Below, in pieces: positions 2,132-39,214 of a stretch of DNA of 39,214 bases (the first letter of the stretch is position 1; each line of letters starts with the position of its first letter). Under the pieces are notes generated by a model, which made no database searches, had not been told where the DNA came from, and worked only from the letters and a program-made list of their open reading frames with translations. Where the stretch lies: the IMG/VR virus record IMGVR_UViG_3300045988_075215. One strand, 5' to 3'. The translations under genes were made by a program, and so were the position numbers. The stretch comes from a virus.

Positions 2132-2530
2132 TTATCCTTTAGCTTCTCCTGATGCCTCATCTGAAGCCTCAGATGCCCCTTCCTGCCCCTTTACTGCCAT
2201 ATCATAGACAATTCCACCCTGGGAGTTTTCCCTGGCTGATTTTGCCGCATACGCACAATAGGAAATGGTTTCTCCCACTGTTGCTCCTATCAGGCTATAC
2301 AGAGCAGACAGATCCGCAAAATGCCACATAGCAAACATGGCATAGATCTGAACCGCAGTGCATGAAATGAATATGTATAAAAGGGCTGTTTTGGCCGTTG
2401 TGAGCCTTTTCTTGCGTGGCATATACTTTTCCCTGGCTTCCATCAATTCAAGCCGCCTCTGGGCCTTCTTGCCACGTTCCCTGATGGCTCTGAGCCTTCT
2501 CTTGTGTCTCTGCTCCTCTTTGTCCATCAT
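2132..2530 (-). CDS. Basic N-terminus plus 2-TM membrane protein
   Basis: ORF 2132..2635 was trimmed to the MMDKEEQ start, which follows TAAGGAGGAA. It has hydrophobic segments LLYIFISCTAVQIYAMFAMW and LYSLIGATVGETISYCAYAA. Confidence 0.5.
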   Translation of the reverse strand: MMDKEEQRHKRRLRAIRERGKKAQRRLELMEAREKYMPRKKRLTTAKTALLYIFISCTAVQIYAMFAMWHFADLSALYSLIGATVGETISYCAYAAKSARENSQGGIVYDMAVKGQEGASEASDEASGEAKG

Positions 2531-2537
2531 TTCCTCC

Positions 2538-2921
2538 TTATGGATCCTCATGCAGGGCCAGGATCTCTCTGTCCAACATCTTTGCCTCTTCCTCTGCTTT
2601 TTCCAGTTCCTCAAAGGCATTCCTGAGATCATCATTGTGCTCTCCGGTTTCTATTGCCTTCACAACCCAGAACAGAAGCCTTCCGTTTGCGTGTTGGATC
2701 TTATCATTCACAATCCTTCTCCTCTGCCTGATCTCCTGATCCTTCTTTTCCTGCTCCTCTCTGCCCGCAAGCCGTTTCTCTATGTAGTGCCTAATGAACA
2801 AAAATGCGATCCCACACAGCCCGCTGCCTCCTATTAAGGCAGAGAGGATCATCTTTACTATTTCATTCAGTTCCTTCACCCCCTGCAATAGCATTTGCCA
2901 ACTTGTCAAGCTGCCCTCCAA
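2538..2921 (-). CDS. Membrane-anchored coiled-coil protein, function unknown
   Basis: One TM segment (ILSALIGGSGLCGIAFLFI) is followed by a charged helical region. The start codon is uncertain (TTG at 2921 or an internal ATG). Confidence 0.4.
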   Translation of the reverse strand: MEGSLTSWQMLLQGVKELNEIVKMILSALIGGSGLCGIAFLFIRHYIEKRLAGREEQEKKDQEIRQRRRIVNDKIQHANGRLLFWVVKAIETGEHNDDLRNAFEELEKAEEEAKMLDREILALHEDP

Positions 2922-2950
2922 GCAGCCAATTTGTTATTTTCTGCATGATC

Positions 2951-3139
2951 CTATACATCTGGTTCCCTCCTAACCTTCAAATTCTTGCAATCACAGCAAG
3001 GCTTTTGGCTGTAAGGGATGTGATAGTTCACGCATTCCCCGCAGTTACCAAAATCCTTGCACTCCGGGTTGCACTTCTCAAAAGTACGCTTGCAGTGTTT
3101 CAGTGCCACATGAAGGCACACAAAATTATCACTCTTCAT
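2951..3139 (-). CDS. Cys-rich 62-aa protein, possible metal binding
   Basis: It has 10 Cys, including CNPEC, CGEC and CCDC clusters. It is in the same operon downstream of the RT and overlaps the preceding ORF by 11 nt. Confidence 0.5.
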   Translation of the reverse strand: MKSDNFVCLHVALKHCKRTFEKCNPECKDFGNCGECVNYHIPYSQKPCCDCKNLKVRREPDV

Positions 3140-3338
3140 TATTCAGATTCTCCAACATTGCCACAAGCTCATTTTTTCTTTCAGCCAGTTTCTCTGATTC
3201 TGCAATTTCCTTTGCATACTCTTCCTTTGTGGCTCTGCCCATGGCAATCTTCGTGCCAATGTAATCATTGGCCTTCATAAGCTGATCAACGGCTCTGATC
3301 TCTGCCTCGATCTGCTCTCTTGTCATATTCTCATTCAT
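3129..3338 (-). CDS. 69-aa helical hypothetical protein translationally coupled to the RT
   Basis: Its ATG overlaps the RT stop (ATGA at 3335-3338), with AAAGGAGGA lying inside the RT 3' end. Confidence 0.55.
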   Translation of the reverse strand: MNENMTREQIEAEIRAVDQLMKANDYIGTKIAMGRATKEEYAKEIAESEKLAERKNELVAMLENLNNEE

Positions 3339-4627
3339 GCTGCTATCCTCCTTTCCTCTGAGTATTCAGGTATTTGTGGTACATATACCCATTCTTTTAT
3401 GAATAGCCGGTTGAAAAGAATATCCATCCGCCGGATGGTTTTATATGCGTCTTTCTGCCCGGCGTATCCTCTCCATGATTGATATGCCTCTCTAACCTGG
3501 GCATAGGTCATTGATCCCTCCTCCGTCAGTTTGGCAAATTTCTTCAGCTTTGCTCTTTCCCTTGTGATGGATTCCCGGCATAGCTTTTTCACTACTTTTC
3601 CGGTATCCGTCAGAATAAATCTGGTTTTCAGGAACGTGAAGCCCCTGCTCAGCTTCACAATTTTGGTTTTCTTCTCATTGAGCTGTATGCCTAATTCTGC
3701 ATATTTCTCTCTGAGTACATCCCACACCATTTTCAGATATTCCTTATCCTGGTGAATGATGAGTGAATCATCCATATATCTCTCATACGGCCTGATCCGC
3801 AGCACTTCCTTCACATAATGATCCACCGGATCCGGATATGCCACGGCACATCCCTGGCAGATTTCACTCCCCAGGCCCAGGCCTCTGGCATACTCATCTC
3901 CATAGAGCATTGCTTCCTCTTTTTGTTTCTGCACCTCCATCATCTTCTCATCAGCAAAGGCATCAATGAAGCTCTCTGTGAGTTTGATGATCTTTTCATC
4001 CGTGAATTTCTTCCGGATCATTTCTTTGAGTGGCTCATGTGGTATGCTTGCAAAATAGTTCTTCAGATCTATTTGCAGCACATAGCCCTCAGTACCGTAT
4101 TTCTCATAGTATTCCTGAAGGAATTGAGATACCCGGTTGATTGCGTGGCTTATGCCCATTCCTTGCCTTGATGCCCCATTGTCATATATGAGGCTGTTGC
4201 TTAGAACTGGCATTAAAGCATTCTTTGAGAGGCTCTTTTGCGGCACCCTTTCTGCAAAATGAACACTCTGGATATGCCGGAGCTTCCCTCTTTCCATAAT
4301 GTCAAAAGGTATGAAGCCCTTCCGCACATCCTCTCCATTGATTAGTGCGTTGTGAGTTCTGCACAGATTTTTCCCAAGCTCAGAACCATATCTCTGCACA
4401 CTGGCCTTCCAGTTTACGCCTTTTCTCGCTTCCCTATAGGCTTGATACAAAGAGTTGTAATCTGCCACCCTGGCAAAATCATCATATTCTGAGAGCTTCT
4501 CTCTTCGGTTTTTCTCCCGCTCAGCTTTCCTCCTGAGTTCTCTCTGTGCGTGTCTTTCTTCGCTTGTCATATTGTAATTGTGCCCAGTTCCCCCTTGTAC
4601 GGTTCTGTGTGCTATCCCTAACCGCAT
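3335..4627 (-). CDS. DGR reverse transcriptase
   Basis: RT motifs seen: RGKLRHI, YDNGASRQGMG, QIDLKNYFASI, LGSEICQ (the DGR-type LGxxxSQ position) and YMDD. It lies directly downstream of the TR. A possible in-frame CTG start at 4660 is preceded by GGGAGGTG. Confidence 0.9.
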   Translation of the reverse strand: MRLGIAHRTVQGGTGHNYNMTSEERHAQRELRRKAEREKNRREKLSEYDDFARVADYNSLYQAYREARKGVNWKASVQRYGSELGKNLCRTHNALINGEDVRKGFIPFDIMERGKLRHIQSVHFAERVPQKSLSKNALMPVLSNSLIYDNGASRQGMGISHAINRVSQFLQEYYEKYGTEGYVLQIDLKNYFASIPHEPLKEMIRKKFTDEKIIKLTESFIDAFADEKMMEVQKQKEEAMLYGDEYARGLGLGSEICQGCAVAYPDPVDHYVKEVLRIRPYERYMDDSLIIHQDKEYLKMVWDVLREKYAELGIQLNEKKTKIVKLSRGFTFLKTRFILTDTGKVVKKLCRESITRERAKLKKFAKLTEEGSMTYAQVREAYQSWRGYAGQKDAYKTIRRMDILFNRLFIKEWVYVPQIPEYSEERRIAA

Positions 4628-4848
4628 AATGGTATGGGTATGAAATGCACCTCTGCACAGCCTTCACCTCCCTTCCGATTTTTGCACCATGCAAGCAGCG
4701 TCCACCCATCCATATCAAGCATGATCCCGCTCATGGCACCAGAGCGGAATGAGATAATTTACATTTGCATGAAGGTCATTCACTCCTTCCTCTGTCTGAT
4801 ATTGATTTCTGCTTTTTACGGCGTACTTTGTCGAATCATTATGACAGT
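4628..4848 (-). ncRNA. Spacer between the TR and the RT start, presumed part of the DGR template RNA
   Basis: Assigned by position only. About 220 nt with no convincing ORF, and it contains the hairpin ccgctc-N9-gagcgg. Confidence 0.35.
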
Positions 4849-4972
4849 GAATCAGAGCGGCACCCGGAAGTCATTGGTGCAGTTGTTGTTGTTGGCATTG
4901 CCGTTGTTGTTGACATTGCAGGCATTGGTAGAATTGCCACCATTCACGGACAGAAGCCACCAGTTGGCCCGG
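4849..4972 (-). repeat. DGR template repeat (TR), 124 bp
   Basis: It aligns without gaps to 5493-5616 and 29326-29449. The minus strand reads RANWWLLSVNGGNSTNACNVNNNGNANNNNCTNDFRVPL*, with 14 AAY codons. Confidence 0.92.
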
Positions 4973-5003
4973 AGCGTAATTGTGCAGTGAATAACCTATG
5001 TTT

Positions 5004-5414
5004 TTACTTCTTTCTCTCTATGAGTTTCACTCTGTCCTTCCAGTTCCTCAATTTTTCATCTTCCTTCAGCATCAGGTTTAGCAGAGTATCAAATTTGTTC
5101 CAGTCTACCGGAAGGGTTGTGGCCAGATAATTGATGAGGTTGTATATATCCCGGAGTGTGTCTATTGCTTCCTGGGCTTTTCTCTTCCTCTCCGCAACCT
5201 TTTCCTCCGTGTATGTCCATATTCCATTGGCCATCCTGATCTCGTCATATAATTTCTGGCATAGGGCACACATTGGTTTTGAGAATACATCTCTCCATCC
5301 CTTTGGAACCACATTGGTGTTCCATACAAGCCTTGTGGCCTCTGCTCTTATTTCTTCAGCAAGCTGAAGCACATCTAACTGAGATTTTCCTCTCAGCCTG
5401 GCCAAAACGCTCAT
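5004..5414 (-). CDS. avd: Accessory variability determinant (Avd-like four-helix-bundle protein)
   Basis: 136 aa, basic and all-helical in character. It sits in the canonical position between the target gene and the TR, with a GGGAGGTG RBS. Confidence 0.7.
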   Translation of the reverse strand: MSVLARLRGKSQLDVLQLAEEIRAEATRLVWNTNVVPKGWRDVFSKPMCALCQKLYDEIRMANGIWTYTEEKVAERKRKAQEAIDTLRDIYNLINYLATTLPVDWNKFDTLLNLMLKEDEKLRNWKDRVKLIERKK

Positions 5415-5443
5415 GCGGCCACCTCCCTCTTTCGCAAGTTATA

Positions 5444-5466
5444 CCCGCCACCTGGAAAGTGGCGGG
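5444..5466 (-). promoter_or_regulatory. GC-rich hairpin downstream of VR1 (DGR target-recognition element)
   Basis: Stem cccgccac/gtggcggg (8 bp) with a 7-nt loop, 26 nt beyond the VR1 end. There is no U-tract, so it is not a typical terminator. Confidence 0.7.
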
Positions 5467-5477
5467 ATTGTTCCTGA

Positions 5478-6437
5478 TTATTCCGTGATTCGGAAGCAGA
5501 GCGGCACCCGGAAGTCATAGGTGCAGTTGTTGTAGTCGGCACTGCCGTTGTTGCCGACACGGCAGGCATAGGTAGAAGTGCCACCAGTCACGGACAGAAG
5601 CCCCCAGCTGGCCCGGCTTCCGCCGTCACCGGCCCCTTTGATGCGGCTTCTAAAGCTATTCGCAAATGCCGGATACTGAACCGCCTGGCCTGCACTCCAT
5701 CCCTTTGTGCCCCATACTACAGATCCAAATACTTCATACTCTGAAGGGATCCACAGCTTTCCAAGGTCTGCCCATCCCCATGAGTTTGAATCTGTCAGAG
5801 TTCCGGATCCGGAGTATCTATTTTCCAGAAGGAACCTTTTACTACTAATCACGCTCTGCAATTCTTTAGGCAGCTTTGACACCAAGCCATCCAGAAAGCT
5901 CTTGACTGTTGATTTCAAATAAGGTGCTGCATTTGCAGAGGTTCCGTTGTTATTGTTTTCTGTGAACCATTTCACAGTTTCCGGGTAGCAGTCTTTGGTT
6001 CCCCAGTCAATATGCCATCCAAGCTCCTGATCTGTGGTTCCAGTGTATGTATTGATGCCCAGGATCTCCGGCTTCATAGTGTAGCTTCCCACTGTGATGG
6101 TCATGAAGTCATGCACATGGATTCCATCCAGGTTGTGTGCTGCCAGTCTCGCCTTGATCCATCTCCAAGGGTCAGAGTATTTTGCAATCTCCTCTGCAAA
6201 TCTCACTGTAAGATCTACCCCCTGGTAGTTTTTATCTCCTTCCTCAATGGCAAAATTGCAGTGAGCATTTTCCTCATTGATCTGTTTTGCACCGTACTCA
6301 TCACCCTCCTGGGTGTATGGTGTCTGGTCTGTGTAGCTGAATGTGCCGTCAGAGTTTGTGGCCTGGGAAAATTTGCGATCCGTGGCCAACTCCTCATTGA
6401 TCACATCATCCTTGTAATCTGTTTTTAAGATTGACAT
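5478..6437 (-). CDS. DGR target protein 1: tail fibre/receptor-binding protein with C-terminal variable region
   Basis: 319 aa and the last gene of the tail module. The C-terminus …GGSRASWGLLSVTGGTSTYACRVGNNGSADYNNCTYDFRVPLCFRITE is encoded by VR1. Confidence 0.85.
   Translation of the reverse strand: MSILKTDYKDDVINEELATDRKFSQATNSDGTFSYTDQTPYTQEGDEYGAKQINEENAHCNFAIEEGDKNYQGVDLTVRFAEEIAKYSDPWRWIKARLAAHNLDGIHVHDFMTITVGSYTMKPEILGINTYTGTTDQELGWHIDWGTKDCYPETVKWFTENNNNGTSANAAPYLKSTVKSFLDGLVSKLPKELQSVISSKRFLLENRYSGSGTLTDSNSWGWADLGKLWIPSEYEVFGSVVWGTKGWSAGQAVQYPAFANSFRSRIKGAGDGGSRASWGLLSVTGGTSTYACRVGNNGSADYNNCTYDFRVPLCFRITE
5493..5616 (-). repeat. DGR variable repeat 1 (VR1)
   Basis: 124 bp with 14 mismatches to the TR. 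Thirteen are at TR adenines (plus-strand T) and one is elsewhere (4959). Confidence 0.92.
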
Positions 6438-6451
6438 TTCTTTCCTCCTTG

Positions 6452-7159
6452 TTATTCATTGTTTTCTGTCCGTGGCAGTTTGAATGGGAAGTATTCCCGG
6501 CCCATACGATATGGCAACCTCCTTTCTTCTTTCTCCTCCTTCAGGATCTCAGGATCCTCAAATGGGAAATACTGTCCGCCCAATCTGTACGGCAGCCGCC
6601 TCTTAGGTGTAATAACCGGCGGTTTATGGTATGGTGCAGGGCTCTTGAATGGATGATAAGCCCCGCCAAACCTGGAACCAAAGGCAAAAGGCAGCCGCAG
6701 TTTTGAAGGCTTCACCGGCTCCGGTATTCTCGGATCTTTCAAAGGGAAATACCGTCCTCCCAGTCTGAATGGGATTGCATGAGGCCTGGTGTATAAAAAC
6801 CGCATTTCCTCATACATCTTCAGGCAGGCTGATTCTATGCGGTTCAGATCCGCAAATCCTATGAATGCCCCATTGTCTGCATATTCTGTCTTTTCTCCTA
6901 TGTCACAGCCAACATATTTGTTGATGGCTTCCAGGTTCTCTGATAATACGTTGATTTCATCCGCATAGGGATATTCCTGATAGTTCCGATCCGGCATTGC
7001 TCTCACAAATACCGGCCAAAACTGATGGGCCACTGCTCCCAGGAACTCAATATTGTTCTTGATCCGGTTGTAGTCCGTGATGTTGAAATAATCTCCGGTA
7101 TACTTCCCGCTCTCATCTGTGGAGGCTGCCCAGTCTGTTTTTGGTGTGATCCACTCCAT
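6452..7159 (-). CDS. Tail fibre-associated structural protein with C-terminal Pro/aromatic repeats
   Basis: It has an N-terminal PKTDW…DYNRIKNNIEFL motif typical of Firmicute phage fibre proteins. Four copies of LP[YF]R[LM]GG.YFPF..P occupy aa 129-229. Confidence 0.55.
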   Translation of the reverse strand: MEWITPKTDWAASTDESGKYTGDYFNITDYNRIKNNIEFLGAVAHQFWPVFVRAMPDRNYQEYPYADEINVLSENLEAINKYVGCDIGEKTEYADNGAFIGFADLNRIESACLKMYEEMRFLYTRPHAIPFRLGGRYFPLKDPRIPEPVKPSKLRLPFAFGSRFGGAYHPFKSPAPYHKPPVITPKRRLPYRLGGQYFPFEDPEILKEEKEERRLPYRMGREYFPFKLPRTENNE

Positions 7160-9796: not shown

Positions 9797-12700
9797 TTAT
9801 GCGTTGGCCATCTGATAGCCTTTTCTCCTTCTGTATTTGTCCGTCTGTTCTACCAGTGTCTTGCTGTCAAGCTGCACAATGGTCTGAATGGTCTGGTACT
9901 CGCTTCCGCTGTCCATATCTCCAATGATTGCCCTCAGGTTCACTGAGATGATCTCTCCGATCCTTCCGGCTATCTTATCCATCCATCCGGTATTGTTTTC
10001 CAGTGGAACCACAGCCTCCTGCCCGGCTTCACCTACCATGGCCAGTGTGGCCTTGTCGATCACCCCGCCGGTTGCAAGTCTCGGTATTGAGATTTCTCCA
10101 ATGGTTGAGATGTTGAAGCCAAATGTTTCACCACCGATCTCCGGCACCCAGTCTGGTACATCAAAGCTCAGCCTATTCAAAGCTCTGATCATTCCATTCA
10201 GCCCTCTGATCGCACCGTTGGCCATCTTCTCCACTCCGCCTATGATGCTGTTGATCACACCTTTGATGGAGCTCCAAATTCCGTTGAAGATAGTCACAAC
10301 CGTGGTTTTCATGGTTCCCCACACATTTGCCCACACGGTTTTTATACCGTTCAGGGCAGTGCTGATCCCGCTTGATATGGTTCCCATGGTGGTTGTGATG
10401 GTGCTCTTGATACTTCCAAAAATCGTGCTAACAGTTGTTTTCACGCTTGTAAATATCGTACTGAATACCGTTTTGATTGTATTCAGAACTGTGCTGATGG
10501 TGGTGCTTATCGTGTTGATCGTGGTTGTGATCACCGACTTGATAGCATTCCAGATGGTTGTTACCGTGGTTTTGATGGCGTTCCAAATTGTCTCAAATAT
10601 CGTTTTGATTGTATTCAGAACTGTGCTGATCACTGTGGATACCGCACTGATGGCCGTGGATACTATGGTTTTCATAGCAGACCATATTGTGCTCAGTATC
10701 GTTTGCATGGCCTCCCAAATGGATGAGAAGAAGGTTTTTATACCCTCCCATGCTCTATCCCAGTCACCGGTGAAAACTCCGGCTATGAAGTCAATGAGGC
10801 CTCCCAGGGCATCAAAGATGTTGCCTACTACATCAGCAACTACCCCTGCCACCTTCAGGAATACATTTCCAACTATTTCAAGTTTTGCAGCGATCACCGG
10901 AGCAATGTTGGTGATAAACCACTCTATGAATGGCTGTAGCGTCTGCTCCCATATATCTTTCACCGCATCAGCAATTTTGCCTATGAGCTCCAATCCTTTA
11001 TTGATTGCAGGCTGTATATGCTCATCTATGAGCGGCCCAACCTTTTCCTGAAGCCCCTTCAGCACCGGCAGAATGTGTGTGTTGTATGCGTCAAGGCATA
11101 CAGAGGCAATGGAGCTGAAGCCGCTTGCCAATGAGTTGAACATTGGAGCAACATGCTGATCATATACCTCATTCGCTTTTGTGAATGTATCATCCACCAC
11201 TTTCTTGATATTTCCCAGTGCGTCTGCCGCCACTCCCAGGAGCTCATCAAGAGTGCTTTTGAAGCCTTCCTGATTTTCTATAAAAGGCCTCGTTATCATA
11301 TCCAGAACATCCCGGCTGATCTTTCCGGCCAGTTCGTTTATGCCCATCTGTGCATCTGCAAAAATGCCTATCAGATTGGCGGTTGCCTGCTGTGCGTTCT
11401 CTCCTCCAAATGCGGAGAAGATATTTGCTGCTGCCTGAGCAAAATTTCCCTGAATCGTCACGATCTCGGAGCCTATATCAAACATAGACACCAGATGCTT
11501 CTTGATCCTCTCTTTGTTCTGATCCAGGTATTTGTTGATTCCGCCCAGGATATTGGTTGCAATCGTTATTCCAACGCTTGCCATGGCTCCTGCCTGCTGC
11601 CCCAGTGAATATGCCAGGGAATTTGCAAAGCCGTTTGCCGCCGCAACCACTTCCGGTGCCGTGAATATTTCCCTGATGCTCTTCTTTATGCCGTCCACAG
11701 CCTTTGTGATGCCGCTCAGGTCTACATCTCCAAGCCCTGCCTTGAATCCATCCTTGAAAAGCTGCTGCAATTCCTTCAGCCTCTCTATGAGTTTTTCCAG
11801 TGCCGGGTTCAGGGTTTCATCTGTTTCATTTGCAGCGTCAACTATGTTCTCACTCAGGCCGCCTCCCGCTGCTCCGCCGCCTGATCCGGATCCGCCGCTT
11901 CCTGAATCATCATTCTTTGTCAGAGAATGAATCTCATCAAATGATGCCAGGCCTGCATATTCTTTTGCCGCCTTTTTGGCTGAAGATCCCGCTTTATTCG
12001 TTGCACCGCCCAGGTTCTCCATGGAACCGGTTGCTGTGTCCGCAGCTCCCCCAATTCCTTCCACCGCCGTGGTGGTTGTCTTTGTGTTCTTTCCGGTAAT
12101 TTTCGCAATCATGTTGCTGAATGCGTCTGTTACCGTTAGGATCTTACTCAGTAGTGCATTGAGCACTCTGATCACCGGTGTGAATACTACAATGAGCCCC
12201 TTGCCAATCGTGGCCTTCAGAGCGTTGAATCTCTCTGTGAGCACTCTCACCTGGTTGGCCCATCCGTCTGATGTTCTCGCAAAATCTCCCTGAGCATCCG
12301 CTGTCACAGACATAAGATAGTTATATCTGAGCATGGCCTGCTCCTGCTGTGTCATGGAGTTGTAGGCTTTTGTGATGCCCTGGCTTAAAGCGTAAGCCTC
12401 CAAATTGGCCACGCTCATGTTTATACCTAACTGTTTCAGCGGCTCTGTTTCTCCTGAGATACCTGAGCGGATTTTCTCAAATGCCACATCTGTATCCAGG
12501 TTATAGAAGGAAGCCATATCTGCTGCCAGTCCAGTCATTTGCATGGACATTTCAGCCGCCGCCTGGGTTGTGAAGCCCATTGATTTCAGCATGGCCCCCA
12601 ATGTTGATGAGTATTTTTTAGCACTTGTTTCTGAGAGGCCGAACTCTTCAAGCGCATCCCTGGCAAAACGGTTTATCGTCTCCGACATTGCCCCAAATGT

Positions 12701-27972: not shown

Positions 27973-28608
27973 TCACTTATAGAAATTGTGGTTTCCCACT
28001 GTTTTTATGTATTCCAGGTTCTTTGAGTGCCAGGTTCCTTCTCCGTTGGATGTTGCCTCAAAATATAGGGCTCCTTCACTCTCATCCCAGTGATCTACCA
28101 TCACCATATAAAGTGCTTTGTAACAATCCGCATCCGGTTCTACATTCCAGTATCTTTCCCCTGGCATAACGGAGCTGAACTGGAAAACTCCGTCTTTTAT
28201 TTCAAATATCACATCCTCAATGGTTCCTGGGAAATCATCATCCCAAACCCTATTGAGAACCGTTCTGATCACCATGGCCTTCCCTTCAGTGCTCTCTCCT
28301 TCCGCCTCTGCCATTGCAATCCTGGCCAGTAAATAGCTTTCATACGCATCCCAGTCCGTTGAGTGCTCTTCTGTTGCCGTTGGCCGTTCTTCCCGGATAA
28401 ATACCACCTGAACCTTCTCCGGCTCCTCTGTGGCCGTCTCAGCGGCTTCAGGGAGCGGTTCTGGCTCATCCTCTTTCTTCACCGCTGTCATGCAGATGCA
28501 GGACACAGAAATAATTATGAGCATGATCCCCAGGAGCTTCATGTTTATCCGTTTTCTTCTCCTTCTTTTCCTTCTGGTTCGTGTCTTATTCTCCATAATC
28601 TGTGCCAA
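27973..28608 (-). CDS. Membrane-anchored SleB/CwlJ-type cell wall hydrolase (Hydrolase_2-like)
   Basis: It has a basic N-terminus and a TM segment (LLGIMLIIISVSCICMTAV). Catalytic-domain motifs seen: LLARIAMAEAEGES…VIRTVLNRV…QFSSV…ALYF. Confidence 0.7.
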   Translation of the reverse strand: MAQIMENKTRTRRKRRRRKRINMKLLGIMLIIISVSCICMTAVKKEDEPEPLPEAAETATEEPEKVQVVFIREERPTATEEHSTDWDAYESYLLARIAMAEAEGESTEGKAMVIRTVLNRVWDDDFPGTIEDVIFEIKDGVFQFSSVMPGERYWNVEPDADCYKALYMVMVDHWDESEGALYFEATSNGEGTWHSKNLEYIKTVGNHNFYK

Positions 28609-28819
28609 TCAGCTCCTCTCTCAGTTCTTCATACCTGGTTTCCAGGTGCCTGAAGCTCTCCTCCTGCCTCTTTATGCAAAGAAGCATACTCACCATGAAG
28701 CACAGTAGCAAAATGATCAATGATACCGCTGCCCTGTTGAAGTTTCTGGCCTTTTTCAGTTCATCCTCCATGCTCAGCTTCTCATTCAGCATTTCAAAAT
28801 ATTCTTTTTCTCCACTCAC
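28586..28819 (-). CDS. Small single-TM protein
   Basis: 77 aa with the hydrophobic segment AAVSLIILLLCFMVSMLLCI. Confidence 0.45.
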   Translation of the reverse strand: MSGEKEYFEMLNEKLSMEDELKKARNFNRAAVSLIILLLCFMVSMLLCIKRQEESFRHLETRYEELREELIGTDYGE

Positions 28820-29232
28820 TTTTTCGCCTCCTCTCCGGTTTTTACCTTCAGCCCTATTTTTTCAAAATAAAATTTTATTTTCCCCTCATGTTCCTCCACC
28901 ATCCCATACCTCACTGCTATGCTGTATGTGCTCACATCTCTTGCAAGCCGCTTAGGTATTCCTGATAACATTTCTCGGAATGTTTCCAGGTCGAAAGTTG
29001 CTTTGTATTTATTACACGATCTGCATGAAGGGAGCATATTCTCCACAGAATCCACTTTCAGCCCAAGTTCATCATCCATATACTCATAATTTTTCAGGCA
29101 GAGCACATGATCTGCATGAAAACCTTTGAATGGTATTTCACAACCGCAGTACGCACACCTCCCGCCGGTTTTTTCGTATACTTCCCGCCGTTCCTTCTGT
29201 GTGAGCTTTTTCCTCATTCTCTCACCCCGCAA
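28816..29232 (-). CDS. HNH endonuclease
   Basis: Motifs GGRCAYCGCEI…HADHV…PSCRSCNKYK. Confidence 0.8.
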   Translation of the reverse strand: MRGERMRKKLTQKERREVYEKTGGRCAYCGCEIPFKGFHADHVLCLKNYEYMDDELGLKVDSVENMLPSCRSCNKYKATFDLETFREMLSGIPKRLARDVSTYSIAVRYGMVEEHEGKIKFYFEKIGLKVKTGEEAKK

Positions 29233-29275
29233 TTCTTATTTTCTAAAAATTCATTAGCGTATCCCTACCAGTTAC

Positions 29276-29299
29276 CCTGCCGCCGGTTACAGCGGCAGG
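29276..29299 (-). promoter_or_regulatory. GC-rich hairpin downstream of VR2 (DGR target-recognition element)
   Basis: Stem cctgccgc/gcggcagg (8 bp) with an 8-nt loop, 26 nt beyond the VR2 end. This is the same spacing as at VR1. Confidence 0.7.
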
Positions 29300-29310: not shown

Positions 29311-29937
29311 TTATCTCTTGATTGAGAAGCAGAGCGGCACCCGGAAGTCATTGGTGCAGTTGTAGTCGTTGGCATAGCCGAAGTAGTTGACAAGGGAGGC
29401 ATCGGTAGAATTGCCACCATACACGGACAGAAGCCACCAGGTGGCCCGGCTTCCTCCGTGTCCTCCCATCTTTATTCTGTTTCTCGGATCCTTGAAGATC
29501 TCTAACTGCTCCCCTTCCTTTGCATCAGAGAACCATTCTTCTCCAAACACCTCATATTCTGAAGGGAGCCACAGCTTCAGCATGAATTTCTCCTCTTCGC
29601 CGTCCACAACCTGGATGCACTCTCTTTCACAGATCACAGCTTTCAGTTCTTCCGGAAGCTGCTGCCATACCTTTTCATTCAAAGCCTTGCAGAGGTCACT
29701 CTTCTTGAAGCCTCCGGTGTTTCTTCCGTTCTCATTCCATGTAAATCTCTCCGCCATGGTGTCACGGCTGATGAAGTCCATTCTGTCCTCCGTGATATGA
29801 GCCACCTCATACACCATCTTTTCTCCGGTGAGGAGCTCATCCTCAATCTGATCTCCTACCTTCAGGCTTCCTGCTGCCACCAGGGCTGCAATGTCCTTCC
29901 ATGTGGTTCCTTCTGTTCTTCTGGTTGTCAAATTCAT
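29311..29937 (-). CDS. DGR target protein 2: stand-alone 208-aa paralogue of the target-1 C-terminal domain
   Basis: It shares LWLPSEYEVFG and …GGSRATWWLLSV…DFRVPLCF with target 1. Its 3' end is VR2. Confidence 0.85.
   Translation of the reverse strand: MNLTTRRTEGTTWKDIAALVAAGSLKVGDQIEDELLTGEKMVYEVAHITEDRMDFISRDTMAERFTWNENGRNTGGFKKSDLCKALNEKVWQQLPEELKAVICERECIQVVDGEEEKFMLKLWLPSEYEVFGEEWFSDAKEGEQLEIFKDPRNRIKMGGHGGSRATWWLLSVYGGNSTDASLVNYFGYANDYNCTNDFRVPLCFSIKR
29326..29449 (-). repeat. DGR variable repeat 2 (VR2)
   Basis: 124 bp with 13 mismatches to the TR. Twelve are at TR adenines and one is elsewhere (4919). Confidence 0.9.
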
Positions 29938-29960: not shown

Positions 29961-30230
29961 TCAGGCGTTCCGGCCGCCTGCTGCCGTCTCAGTGTCTTTG
30001 GCTCCCGCTGCAATAAGGGCCAACTTGATCTGCTGCACCTTCACCGGGCCAATGCCCTTGATCTGGCTGATTGCCTCCATGGCCAGTGCTGTATCAAATG
30101 ATGGGGCTGCTGCCTTCATTCCCATCTCAAAAATACTGTTTATGTATTCCTCCATGGTGTTGTGATCCATCTTGCGGATCTGATTGTATTTATTGCGGTT
30201 TATTTCCACCGCTTTCTTCTTTTTGGCCAT
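29961..30230 (-). CDS. Small protein with a helix-hairpin-helix-like motif
   Basis: Motif ISQIKGIGPVKVQQIKLAL. Confidence 0.4.
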   Translation of the reverse strand: MAKKKKAVEINRNKYNQIRKMDHNTMEEYINSIFEMGMKAAAPSFDTALAMEAISQIKGIGPVKVQQIKLALIAAGAKDTETAAGGRNA

Positions 30231-30241
30231 CCCCTGCCTCC

Positions 30242-31243
30242 TTATCTCTTTTTGCGATCATAATCTTCAAAGTTTCTGATTGTTCGGAATACTCTTTTTG
30301 AGTTCACCCATCTCTGCAAATCAATGCAGATTTGCGGTGCGTTCCATTTTTCATACACCATCACATATGGATCAAACCCCAAATCTCTGAGTGTGTATAT
30401 TCTGTGAAGATCCTGCTCTATTGTGCTGTTGAAATTGATCAGGGTGTATACTGTCAGCCTTCTTCTATCCAAGCCGGTGATCTCCTTGAACATTTTCAAT
30501 TTCGGCACAATCAGATCCTCATCCTCCGGGTTATCCCACGCAAAATGCAGCATCTTCACCTTTAGCTTCTTTATGAGCTCAGTGTTTTTCTCTGTGAGCA
30601 GCCTTGCATCAAGCCCTTGGTTTATATCCACCCACGCCTTAGAATCCACAAGCTGCTGCAATATTTCCAGGTGCTCCGGGCAGGCCAGGAGGTTTGGATC
30701 CATGAGTTTAATCTCTTTTTGTCCTCTCCAAAACTCATCCAAATCTGCCACCTTCCTGCTTTTCTTTCCCTCTTTGCATCCCACTATGCAGAAATGGCAT
30801 CCTCTTGGGCGCCCTCTGCTTGTGAATCCGTATGCAGTATCAGTTATTCCATACAGCGAATAATCAGGGTATATATGCTCTGCTTCATATGGCAAAATGT
30901 CCTGGTAGGTTTTTCCTGCCTCTGTAATCGTCAAAGGTATTCGATCACTTTCTTCCAGTCCAACCTTCTTTATAAGCTCATCCCTCATGCTTCTGAATCG
31001 TTCTTGCAGCTCACCATGAATGAATCCGCTTCCACCATATTGCACTGCATCTGCATTCATTGGATAATCAAAAAACTCCGAAAAAGAGAAAACCCTGCTC
31101 ACATATATCTTTTCCATGTGGCCTGATAAAAGCGGGTAGTACCACTCCACTTCATCTCCTGCTGCCTTGTGATATGCAGAGAGCTTCATCATTGGCAAAT
31201 TGGGGTAGTTGTGGCCATCCACATCAATCAAGCCTACTCTCAT
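30242..31243 (-). CDS. Radical-SAM-superfamily-like protein with an atypical Cys motif
   Basis: It reads TSRGRPRGCHFCIVGC where a canonical enzyme has RGCxxxCxFC. The N-terminal LIDVD…PNLPMMKLSAYHK is reminiscent of phage B12-like/radical-SAM proteins. Confidence 0.45.
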   Translation of the reverse strand: MRVGLIDVDGHNYPNLPMMKLSAYHKAAGDEVEWYYPLLSGHMEKIYVSRVFSFSEFFDYPMNADAVQYGGSGFIHGELQERFRSMRDELIKKVGLEESDRIPLTITEAGKTYQDILPYEAEHIYPDYSLYGITDTAYGFTSRGRPRGCHFCIVGCKEGKKSRKVADLDEFWRGQKEIKLMDPNLLACPEHLEILQQLVDSKAWVDINQGLDARLLTEKNTELIKKLKVKMLHFAWDNPEDEDLIVPKLKMFKEITGLDRRRLTVYTLINFNSTIEQDLHRIYTLRDLGFDPYVMVYEKWNAPQICIDLQRWVNSKRVFRTIRNFEDYDRKKR

Positions 31244-31256
31244 TCCTGCTGCCTCC

Positions 31257-37566: not shown

Positions 37567-37587
37567 GGGCATTTTTATGCCCTTTTT
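37567..37587 (+). promoter_or_regulatory. Small hairpin plus T5 immediately upstream of the integrase RBS
   Basis: Sequence gggcat-tttt-atgccc followed by ttttt, then AGGAGG (37588-93). Confidence 0.4.
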
Positions 37588-37600
37588 AGGAGGTTTTGCT

Positions 37601-39187
37601 GTGCATTTTGGAATTTATGGAAGAAAATCATATTTTAAGGACACCTCAGACAGTACACAGATGCAGTTTTCTGAAGGTGATAAATATATAGCTGAACACT
37701 TTTCCCCGGATGAGATTGAATCCGTCACATACTATGAGGATGATGGTTGGATCCGTTCTGATATGGATAGGCCGGATCTGAACCGCCTGAAGGATGATAT
37801 ACTTGCAGGACTCATCAATGTGGTGGTTATTTATAAAATAGACCGTCTGTGCTGTGATATGGCCGACTTTGTACCGTTCTATGCCTTCCTGAAGGATCAT
37901 GGTGTTAAATTCATCACCATCAAAGATGGCATTGATACCACCACGCCTATTGGAGAGGCCATGATGTACCTGGCTGTTATCTTCTCCGGCCTGGAAGTGC
38001 AAACCGACTCCCTCCGGATCACCGATAACATGAACCACCTGGCAGCGGAGGGCTTCTGGTGTGGAGGCAAGCCGCCCATTGGTTATGATATTCAGGAGAT
38101 CTCCCTGGGTGCAAAATCTCATAAAACCCTTGTTTTCAATGAGGATGAAATCCGATATAAAAACACTCTCATTGATATTTTCCTGGAAAACCATTTCTCC
38201 CTTCAGGGTATGGAGACCTACTGCAAAAACCATGGGATCACCTCCCTCAAAGGAAGTTTCCTCTCCACCACTCAGCTCTATAGTATGTTTGGCTCTCCCA
38301 TGTGCGTGGCCAACACTCCTGCTATGTATGATTATTTTGCGGATAAAGGATGCCAGATGAGTGAGGGAAGCCCAAGGGATGCCTGGGATGGAAAGCATGG
38401 GATCATTGTGTATGGCCGCACTATGGAGAAGAAAGTGAGCGGCAAAAAGAAACACATCCAGGCTCCTCCTGAGAACTGGCGTGTGAGTATCGGATACCAT
38501 GAGCCCTATATGACTGATGAGCGTTTCTTTGCCATTCAGGCTCAGTTTGGGCACAACGTATTCAGCAAGCAGGCCAAGTATGATCTCCCGCTGCTCAAAG
38601 GTTCCCTCCGGTGCAAATGTGGCCGCCTTATGTCCATGAGCCGGAAAAAGAAAGCTGATGGCTCTATTTCCACCTGGTACTATTGTCCCCGCCGGATGCG
38701 GAGCGGCGTTGAGGCTTGTGATATGAGCCAAGTCAAATCAGATCTCCTGGATAATAGGGTGATCAGTATCTTCCAGGAGATTGAACATGATCCTGCTGCC
38801 CTGAAAAAGTATCTGAAAGAAGAAAAGAAACAGCCGCAGGATAACGCCGCCGCTCTCCGGGCCGCCATGGAGAAATGCCAGGCCAAAATAGGCAAGCTCA
38901 CCGCCACCCTGAGCCTCAACTCTGAATCTGCTGCTGCAAAGTATATTGTGAATGAAATTGAGAAATTGGATATTGAGTATAATTCACTCAGGAAAAGAAT
39001 GCTGAGTGCAAATGCCGTTGATCGGAAGAATGCTCTCAACATGAAGAATGCTATGGAAAAAAGAGAGGAGATCATCCGCCTCCTCAATGATTTTGACAAC
39101 TTCACACCTAATGAGCGGAATGAGATTGCCAAGGATGTGCTGAAGGAATGTGTGTGGGATGGGAATACGCTTTTTCTTACGCTTTAA
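37601..39187 (+). CDS. Large serine recombinase (integrase)
   Basis: GTG start 7 nt after AGGAGG. The resolvase-type N-terminus reads HFGIYGRKS…VVIYKIDRL…ITIKDGIDTTTPIGEAM. A recombinase domain, a Cys-rich zinc ribbon (CKCG…CPRR) and a coiled coil follow. The track start at 37577 lacks an RBS. Confidence 0.85.
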   Translation: MHFGIYGRKSYFKDTSDSTQMQFSEGDKYIAEHFSPDEIESVTYYEDDGWIRSDMDRPDLNRLKDDILAGLINVVVIYKIDRLCCDMADFVPFYAFLKDHGVKFITIKDGIDTTTPIGEAMMYLAVIFSGLEVQTDSLRITDNMNHLAAEGFWCGGKPPIGYDIQEISLGAKSHKTLVFNEDEIRYKNTLIDIFLENHFSLQGMETYCKNHGITSLKGSFLSTTQLYSMFGSPMCVANTPAMYDYFADKGCQMSEGSPRDAWDGKHGIIVYGRTMEKKVSGKKKHIQAPPENWRVSIGYHEPYMTDERFFAIQAQFGHNVFSKQAKYDLPLLKGSLRCKCGRLMSMSRKKKADGSISTWYYCPRRMRSGVEACDMSQVKSDLLDNRVISIFQEIEHDPAALKKYLKEEKKQPQDNAAALRAAMEKCQAKIGKLTATLSLNSESAAAKYIVNEIEKLDIEYNSLRKRMLSANAVDRKNALNMKNAMEKREEIIRLLNDFDNFTPNERNEIAKDVLKECVWDGNTLFLTL

Positions 39188-39214
39188 TTTTCCCTTTTTT
39201 ATTTTGATACCCTC
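39116..39214 (+). repeat. Terminal overlap, copy 2 (identical to 1-99)
   Basis: Read directly. Confidence 0.95.

Follow-up and report, generated by a model that had tools for sequence, protein, structure and literature searches.

When a reverse transcriptase (RT) gene is found at the end of the tail module of a phage and lies next to a pair of imperfect repeats, the question arises whether the phage rewrites parts of its own genes, and if so, which ones. This question is raised by an element on the minus strand (3335-6437) of the IMG/VR record IMGVR_UViG_3300045988_075215, of which the whole stretch of 39,214 nt was analysed and is called the window below. A first-pass annotation had interpreted the element as a diversity-generating retroelement (DGR) with the order target-avd-template repeat-RT, that is, of the mtd-avd-TR-brt type of Bordetella phage BPP-1. 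We know of no other natural system by which prokaryotes and their viruses hypermutate proteins in a targeted way, and DGRs are common in gut phages. Both the interpretation and the order are supported by our analysis, and all features were recovered at the minus-strand coordinates that had been given. We are highly confident that the window holds a complete DGR of BPP-1 architecture, with two targets, in a temperate, siphovirus-type phage of about 39.1 kb from gut Lachnospiraceae.

The repeats carry the main evidence, and they are the following:

4849-4972, minus strand: template repeat (TR), non-coding, 124 nt, 32 adenines
5493-5616, minus strand: variable repeat 1 (VR1), at the 3' end of target gene 1; diversified part 5515-5609 (TR positions 8-102)
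29326-29449, minus strand: variable repeat 2 (VR2), at the 3' end of target gene 2; diversified part 29348-29442

The TR and VR1 had been located correctly in the first-pass annotation. Together they form a direct repeat of 124 nt with 89% identity, and in a programmatic alignment of the coding strands they differ at 14 positions, of which 13 are adenines in the TR (A>G 6, A>C 4, A>T 3) and one is a T (T>G). The hypergeometric probability of such an adenine bias, given 32 adenines in 124 nt, is ~3e-8. When the whole window was searched with the TR by blastn, a third copy of the repeat emerged, VR2; it has 13 mismatches, 12 of them again at TR adenines. The first-pass annotation had target 1 with VR1 right and missed this second target, 24 kb away, so that it covered one of the two. 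A pattern derived from the TR by letting each A be any nucleotide matched three times in the window and not once in 100 shuffles. The mismatch pattern is real and non-random.

The TR is also laid out for the mutagenesis of codons. In both target frames, 31 of the 32 TR adenines occupy codon positions 1 or 2. Read in the target frame, the TR contains 14 AAY codons, 2 ACC codons and 1 GAC codon, none of which can be mutated to a stop codon, and the theoretical repertoire amounts to ~10^18 protein variants per target. The A at 4852 (TR position 121) makes an in-frame TGA, whereas the VRs encode a conserved Cys there.

Public metagenome relatives were used as a surrogate for read data. They were retrieved with the TR pattern in which every A was replaced by N, which yielded three IMG/VR contigs, a 68-kb contig of an uncultured Acetatifactor sp. 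metagenome-assembled genome (MAG) and 13 human-gut metagenome stretches. Outside the repeats these relatives are ~96-99% identical to the window (loci other than the window carry L numbers below). The three repeats behaved as follows:

TR: 6 copies; 0 of 32 adenine sites vary; pairwise difference 0 per A site and 0.016 per non-A site
VR1: 6 alleles, all distinct; 29 of 32 adenine sites vary; pairwise difference 0.63 per A site and 0.021 per non-A site
VR2: 11 alleles, 10 of them distinct; 30 of 32 adenine sites vary; pairwise difference 0.54 per A site and 0.010 per non-A site

The flanking DNA differs by about 0.003-0.05 per site, except for a mosaic stretch downstream of VR2. Hence, the heterogeneity that the first-pass annotation had proposed to look for is present in the public metagenomes: variation is found in the VRs, restricted to the positions that face TR adenines, and the TR adenines themselves do not vary. 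The same picture emerges from 87 public protein alleles of the 208-aa target, in which the 17 TR-adenine codons have a mean entropy of 2.42 bits and the other 191 positions one of 0.125 bits. One aberrant VR2 allele, that of L008 (ADJT01008751.1), was left out of the statistics; it contains two frame-breaking 1-nt indels, one upstream of the VR and one inside it, which are probably sequencing or assembly errors.

At the population level, the transfer of information from TR to VR is unidirectional, as shown by non-A polymorphisms that co-segregate. Two TR polymorphisms, G16T and G28T, recur in both VRs of the contigs that carry them (L002; L006 together with L011; for G28T also L009, with VR2 on L013, another contig from that assembly), and genomes that have a G at TR positions 16 and 28 have a G in both VRs. 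At position 121 all 6 TR copies have an A and all 17 VR copies a C, and the T122C polymorphism in the TR of L009 was not copied to the VRs. Since A121 and T122C are never transferred, the transferred segment starts between positions 103 and 120, and it reaches at least position 8. These bounds agree with the rule established for BPP-1, in which the synthesis of complementary DNA (cDNA) starts at a fixed GC-rich site near the 3' end of the TR (PMC6182149, PMC5758913).

The two proteins that are diversified are encoded by the following genes:

5478-6437, minus strand: target gene 1, 319 aa; DUF6273 domain with VR1 at the C-terminus
29311-29937, minus strand: target gene 2, 208 aa; free-standing DUF6273 domain with VR2 at the C-terminus, 24 kb from the TR

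The tail module ends with target 1, which is preceded by the tape measure, a protein of the distal-tail kind, a tail protein of 749 aa and an open reading frame (ORF) of 235 aa. It had been described as a 319-aa tail-fibre-like gene that ends in VR1 at the end of this module, and the ORF found at 5478-6437 agrees with that description: over 284 aa it is 52% identical to the C-terminal region of orf22, annotated as 'tail fibre protein', of Roseburia phage Shimadzu (LR596903.1; Cornuault et al.), which carries the closest known relative of the element. The N-termini of the two proteins are unrelated, and the protein is shorter here (319 aa vs 431 aa). A shared C-terminus combined with a swapped N-terminus fits a ligand-binding module that is attached to different tails. 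Both targets match the Pfam family DUF6273, target 1 with 25.6 bits vs a cut-off of 23.5 and target 2 with 71.3 bits, also above the cut-off, and target 2 is 38% identical to the C-terminal domain of target 1. In the literature, DUF6273 is counted among the C-type-lectin-like target domains of DGRs, the VR being located at the C-terminus (PMC10743442, PMC11792537). The AlphaFold model of target 1 (pLDDT 80) is confident from residue ~70 onwards, the N-terminal ~70 aa being disordered or poorly modelled. A Foldseek search with this model returned the DUF6273-bearing IgA peptidase 9qa6 (E 6e-4), the C-terminal domain of Legionella Lcl (prob 0.75) and C-type lectins (E~1).

Target 2 lacks an N-terminal anchoring domain and is located in the replication/DNA-modification module. 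It is 39% identical to orf43 (209 aa), the second DGR target of Shimadzu. The placement of a small DUF6273 protein together with methylases and a cell-wall hydrolase is common to the window, Shimadzu and a prophage of Lachnospiraceae bacterium 10-1. The hydrolase-like gene in question (27973-28608, minus strand) is separate from the endolysin of the lysis module (428-1492) and matches endolysin-type PHROGs; such a gene is found near the small DGR target in all three phages (the window, L028 at 11154-11840, and orf40 of Shimadzu), and in the Lachnospiraceae bacterium 10-1 prophage it contains the Pfam domain Hydrolase_2. The region around target 2 is mosaic, with flanks at 28769-29239 and 30103-31252. 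The HNH endonuclease ORF (28816-29232) is replaced by unrelated, non-aligning sequence in L001, L011, L015 and L017, all close relatives of the window, as is the radical-SAM ORF (30242-31243) in L001, L011 and L015; the HNH ORF has been kept in the Acetatifactor MAG locus L004.

From its position and its homology, we infer that target 1 is a receptor-binding tail-tip protein. The DGR could also be active on proteins of another kind, target 1 being an accessory adhesin for mucus, glycans or environmental ligands and target 2 a non-virion, possibly intracellular binder. In this respect it should be mentioned that neither target matched a functionally annotated PHROG tail family, and that target 2, with no N-terminal anchor, lies between DNA methylases and the cell-wall hydrolase in three phages. 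Moreover, DGR targets with non-receptor roles have been described in gut phages, e.g. Hoc-like Ig proteins (PMC11792537), and the function of Shimadzu orf43 was reported as unknown (10.1101/575076). Target 1, however, closes the tail module, shares its C-terminal 284 aa with a protein annotated as a tail fibre despite the different N-terminus, and has the same layout relative to the other genes as mtd in BPP-1. We therefore consider this alternative unlikely, although it should be kept in mind, and continue with the reading in which target 1 is part of the tail tip.

The gene that gives the element its name has the following features:

3335-4570, minus strand (ORF open to 4627): DGR reverse transcriptase, 411 aa from Met20 of a 430-aa ORF
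3767-3778, minus strand: YMDD motif of the RT
3854-3874, minus strand: LGSEICQ, a variant of the RT signature motif, by alignment to IGSLTSQ of bRT

The minus-strand YMDD ORF (3335-4627, 430 aa) was found as it had been annotated, but the protein itself is probably shorter. Met20 of the ORF (ATG at 4570) corresponds to residue 1 of the Shimadzu RT, and both sequences start with MTSEER; the true RT is therefore most likely the 411-aa protein encoded by 3335-4570. It matches Pfam RVT_1 and phrog_1423 (E 4e-82). The closest annotated relatives are phage DGR RTs, that of Shimadzu being the nearest (54% identity, from residue 1), and the best solved relative is 8ub7, the DGR RT-Avd ribonucleoprotein of BPP-1. 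Adjacent TR/VR pairs were present at all 7 homologous RT loci examined, with 107 of the 111 mismatches at TR adenines. The RTs of DGRs share the signature [I/V/L]GxxxSQ, whereas group II and retroviral RTs have QGxxxSP (PMC7826257). In the window the motif reads LGSEICQ, with Leu at the first and Gln at the last position, which are the DGR-type discriminating positions, and with Cys in place of Ser; Shimadzu has the canonical LGSETSQ. Compared to the Shimadzu RT there is in addition a 21-aa insertion (EKMMEVQKQKEEAMLYGDEYA) just before the motif, at about 3884-3946 on the minus strand. The Cys variant also occurs in L009 and L012, both of which have diversified VRs; this variant of the signature is compatible with diversification, which is modestly new. 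Taken together, the sequence comparisons support the assignment of the RT to the DGR class.

The second protein component would be provided by the gene between VR1 and the TR:

5004-5414, minus strand: Avd-like accessory gene, 136 aa, pI 9.39, modelled four-helix bundle

The earlier description of this ORF as basic, helical and Avd-like is borne out by its pI, by a structure model with four helices (pLDDT 86) and by structural matches to the Avd family. The top Foldseek matches of the model all belong to the Avd/S23 family (2gsc, 2rld, 8ub7_C and 4dwl, with BPP-1 Avd among them; TM 0.69-0.85). The protein is 28% identical (E 2e-14) to an equally long Shimadzu protein annotated as Avd. A profile search collected 310 representative relatives, and when 74 aligned family members were scanned one by one, 11 matched Pfam bAvd-like and 5 matched 23S_rRNA_IVP, while any other Pfam family was matched by a single member only. 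The profiles themselves gave less: neither a shallow family profile nor the deeper 74-member profile had a meaningful match to PDB sequences, and hhalign comparisons with a PGAP-named Avd of a Vibrio phage and with the Avd of Saumur also gave no meaningful match. The assignment to Avd is thus based on the fold comparison and the member-wise Pfam scans, since only these provided the link. As to the profile check that had been suggested, a direct match to a curated model was not obtained, but a transitive link to bAvd-like (11/74) and 23S_rRNA_IVP (5/74) was. We read the 136-aa protein as a divergent Avd.

In the interval from the TR to the RT gene lies a third component:

4570-4840, minus strand: RT-2 RNA, Rfam RF03077, full-length model, 99.4 bits vs a gathering score of 40

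The first-pass annotation had placed a spacer of ~220 nt here. An interval is indeed present, but it measures 278 nt, given the RT start at Met20, and it holds a structured RT-2 RNA rather than a plain spacer. RT-2 is the only Rfam match in the window. Single-sequence folding of the TR-RT spacer was uninformative (z = 0.10), and the covariance-model match to RT-2 was decisive. In four other DGRs the RNA extends from 5-9 nt past the TR to the RT start or close to it, so that five independent DGRs have it in this position; it scores 145 bits in Shimadzu, 175 in the Faecalibacterium phages Roos and Taranis, and 170 in MT837512. The lower score of the copy in the window (99 bits vs 145-175) goes with two insertions. 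The matches in the four other DGRs lie at L018 5700-5923, L021 1305-1525, L022 1305-1525 and L027 1315-1540. The RNA was absent from five more distant DGR loci that were scanned; nd12, Brigit, Saumur and Toutatis gave no match. Weinberg et al. tied only RT-10 to a DGR, as the BPP-1 spacer, and speculated that other RT motifs belong to other DGRs (PMC5737381). A literature search for a connection of RT-2 or RF03077 with DGRs turned up two papers only, the one that first described the motif and that on Rfam 15. The link between the RT-2 RNA and DGRs is modestly new. By analogy with BPP-1, RT-2 is the presumed functional equivalent of the Sp region, that is, a priming and scaffold RNA for RT and Avd.

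Finally, the 3' ends of the VRs resemble the initiation of mutagenic homology (IMH) elements of other DGRs and are followed by inverted repeats:

5493-5514, minus strand: IMH-like, GC-rich 3' end of VR1, invariant, C being fixed at 5496 as against A in the TR
29326-29347, minus strand: IMH-like end of VR2, GC-rich VR 3' end
5444-5466, no strand assigned: hairpin/cruciform inverted repeat after VR1, 9-bp stem, z = -4.45 (DNA fold)
29276-29299, no strand assigned: hairpin/cruciform inverted repeat after VR2, 10-bp stem, z = -4.61

The GC-rich positions 103-120 are identical in the TR and the VRs. Past position 124 the flanks of VR1 and VR2 are alike, whereas the flank of the TR is unlike them. 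The CTG[A/C]TTC difference between the TR and VR 3' ends is also fixed in Shimadzu. Both hairpins are GC-rich and lie downstream of the stop codon, two compensatory changes distinguish the VR1 hairpin from the VR2 hairpin, and comparable hairpins follow both VRs of Shimadzu. In BPP-1, a hairpin-containing sequence immediately downstream of the VR is required, and it is the structure of the stem and not its sequence that matters (PMC3240598). The hairpins probably correspond to this hairpin/cruciform target-recognition element of BPP-1, by analogy with which they would have the same role. A function as intrinsic terminators was considered and rejected: there is no T-run on the coding strand, and the terminator pattern fits the antisense strand only.

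Several observations weigh against the reading of the element as a complete and working DGR. The RT deviates from the signature by the change of Ser to Cys and carries the 21-aa insertion. Each VR in the window has one difference from the TR that does not involve an adenine (T14G in VR1, at 5603, and G54C in VR2, at 29396). Direct searches with the 136-aa ORF against Pfam, NCBIfam, PHROGs, PADLOC and PDB sequences returned nothing meaningful, and the E-values of its Foldseek matches are weak (0.025-0.4), as expected for small helical bundles. The hairpins are situated 26 nt beyond the end of the TR homology, which is further than in BPP-1. The C-type-lectin-like fold of the target is weakly indicated, by low Foldseek scores and by the literature on DUF6273. 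Finally, the continued activity of exactly this copy is deduced from variation at the level of the lineage and not from reads. With respect to the non-adenine differences between TR and VR, these are rare, about one per allele at most; they could stem from point mutations that arose later or from a low rate of RT errors opposite bases other than adenine. VR1 of L012 differs from the TR by T>G and C>G at positions 31 and 37.

The altered RT, the non-adenine mismatches and the lineage-level nature of the activity evidence would also be in line with an element that is a DGR by descent, but an inactive relic in the window genome, with VR differences that are historical. Yet all ORFs are intact, the YMDD motif is present, and the TR adenines are fully conserved across the relatives. 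The L012 contig has the same RT protein and the same TR as the window but different alleles of VR1 and VR2, from which it appears that the machinery as encoded here is associated with recent diversification; similarly, L009, with an RT that is 99.5% identical and has the same Cys variant, carries different, diversified VRs. Indeed, nearly every sampled genome has unique VRs despite a difference of only ~0.3-5% in the flanks, so that the VRs turn over faster than point mutation would allow in this lineage. An inactive relic is very improbable in our view.

The remaining alternative, an RT of another class (group II maturase, retron, abortive infection (Abi) or DRT defence RT) beside a repeat pair that is an unrelated duplication, deserves practically no credence: the best raw NCBIfam score of the RT is for a group II intron RT/maturase model, PADLOC matched DRT UG17 (67.6 bits) and further RT models weakly, and some GenBank homologues are annotated as 'retron-type' or 'group II intron RT domain', but the family models remain far below their cut-offs (group II TIGR04416 76.5 bits vs 300, Drt3a 43 vs 200, Drt2 26 vs 390, retron St85 19.5 vs 235), the best PADLOC match is the generic RT model, the best PDB match is the DGR bRT, the motif is of the form L-G-xxx-C-Q and not QGxxxSP, an Rfam scan of 2500-7000 at E<=1 had RT-2 as its sole RNA match and none to the RNA domains of a group II intron, the gene is surrounded by a tail gene, Avd and lysis genes and not by effectors, the loci annotated as 'retron-type' or 'group II' themselves adjoin adenine-specific TR/VR pairs, and a duplication cannot yield VR variation that is adenine-specific and tracks the TR. 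The statement in the first-pass annotation that this RT is unlike that of a retron or a group II intron therefore holds.

With the element taken as a DGR, the biochemistry of BPP-1 and the homologies described above suggest how it would work. A transcript that comprises the 3' end of avd, the TR and the RT-2 spacer RNA would be bound by the RT and the Avd-like four-helix-bundle protein. The spacer RNA would prime the cDNA, with a start in the GC-rich TR positions 103-120 and synthesis proceeding 5'-ward through the TR. The RT would copy C, G and U faithfully and insert random nucleotides opposite adenines, after which the mutagenised cDNA would replace the homologous VR in either of the two target genes. 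Targeting would depend on the IMH-like GC-rich 3' end of the VR together with the GC-rich hairpin/cruciform downstream. As an outcome, 17 codons on the DUF6273, C-type-lectin-like surface would be rewritten, and a stop codon would never be created. Precedents exist both for spacer priming by an RT-Avd complex (PMC6182149) and for the combination of IMH and hairpin (PMC3240598).

The DGR of Shimadzu has the same order (tail-fibre-type target, 136-aa Avd, TR, RT-2 RNA, RT), with a VR-to-TR spacing of 647 nt vs 644 nt here, and, as in the window phage, a second target in the replication/modification module and hairpins after both VRs. It was reported, from virion reads and mouse viromes, to diversify a tail protein and a small protein of unknown function (10.1101/575076); its activity has thus been reported experimentally, whereas that of the element in the window is deduced from natural variation. 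The two phages differ in their tails: Shimadzu is a myovirus with sheath and baseplate genes, whereas the window phage has siphovirus-type tail genes. It appears that the cassette has been transferred between phages of the siphovirus and the myovirus type, with a swap of the N-terminus of target 1; such a transfer is modestly new, as is the conserved small second target. Second targets that lie elsewhere in the prophage, and not beside the element, are common (PMC5758913). The element is well supported but of a known kind.

The prototype BPP-1 agrees with the element in the window in gene order and orientation, in adenine-specific mutagenesis with AAY-rich TR codons and the VR at the C-terminus of a domain that is lectin-like, putatively so in the window, in a basic four-helix-bundle accessory protein, in a structured spacer RNA between TR and RT, and in a VR that ends in a GC-rich IMH-like segment, differs there from the TR and is followed by a GC-rich hairpin. 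In contrast, the similarity of the RTs is low (E 2e-11, C-terminal half only), and that of the Avd proteins is undetectable by sequence. Moreover, the spacer RNA is RT-2 (RF03077) here and RT-10 in BPP-1 (PMC5737381), DUF6273 takes the place of Mtd as the target domain (Mtd was outside the top 50 Foldseek matches), there are two targets vs one, and the hairpin is further from the VR.

A third group of related systems is found in other gut Clostridia phages, the Faecalibacterium phages Roos, Taranis, Lelie and CP11 (PMC11792537) and nd4/nd12 (PMC10743442), which have DUF6273 targets with a C-terminal VR. Lelie and CP11 possess 'large' and 'small' DUF6273 targets, and in some of these phages one TR serves both (PMC11792537). 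In Roos and Taranis the RT-2 RNA immediately follows the TR, as it does here. The RTs of the Faecalibacterium and nd phages are ~32% identical to that in the window and hence more distant than the Shimadzu RT. Unlike the cassette in the window, that of Roos has extra ORFs between target and TR, and in nd12 and Toutatis the target lies downstream of the RT; the lack of an RT-2 match in nd12, Brigit, Saumur and Toutatis, mentioned above, is a further difference.

The genome that carries the element begins and ends with an exact 99-bp terminal direct repeat (1-99 and 39116-39214), which indicates that the assembly is circularly closed and that the genome is ~39.1 kb long. On the minus strand the gene order is small and large terminase, portal, head, major tail, tape measure, tail-tip proteins, DGR and lysis; a serine integrase is encoded on the plus strand (37577-39187). 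A prophage segment in an Acetatifactor (Lachnospiraceae) MAG is 96% identical to the window, which upholds the earlier claim of a Firmicute phage. The phage is temperate, of siphovirus type, and from gut Lachnospiraceae. In two longer metagenome contigs (L012, L015) the match to the window ends near ~98-100/39214, which would fit a prophage junction or attachment site beside the serine integrase. A search of GenBank phages for DNA near-identical to 3300-6500 of the window gave no match.

Two ORFs border the element. Downstream of the RT, a 69-aa ORF (3129-3338, minus strand) overlaps the RT stop codon by 4 nt; it has an XkdX-like 'G..T.EEY..I' motif and is 41% identical to Shimadzu orf25, which likewise overlaps the stop of its RT. 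It was considered as a new DGR accessory gene and dropped, as it is absent beside the RTs of Roos, Taranis and MT837512; it is probably a protein of the tail/lysis module and not a DGR component. Directly upstream of target 1 lies the 235-aa ORF (6452-7159, minus strand). Its N-terminal 117 aa match phrog_18725 (function unknown), and towards its C-terminus it has four repeats of ~15-20 aa (IPFRLGGRYFPLKDP, LPFAFGSRFGGAYHPFKSP, LPYRLGGQYFPFEDP, LPYRMGREYFPFKLP). The DGR target may be attached to the tail through this protein.

The element as such adds no new principle. It does provide an unusually clean natural data set, with dozens of independent VR alleles in a nearly clonal background, and with informative TR polymorphisms that show directionality and bound the start and the stop of cDNA synthesis. 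In addition, it connects RT-2, an RNA family to which Rfam assigns no function, with the spacer between TR and RT in a clade of DGRs. A more far-reaching proposal, which we put forward tentatively and think doubtful, is that target 2, whose gene has the same placement in at least three Lachnospiraceae phages, is not a receptor-binding protein of the virion but a diversified soluble binder that acts within the infected or lysogenic cell or at its surface, e.g. against a variable host or competitor factor, and, separately, that RT-2 is the self-priming template scaffold of an entire Clostridia-phage DGR clade. Conserved and so far unexplained, the second target is in any case a good subject for the question what the DGRs of gut phages are for; if it is indeed a soluble binder, it would extend the function of phage DGRs beyond the switching of tropism.

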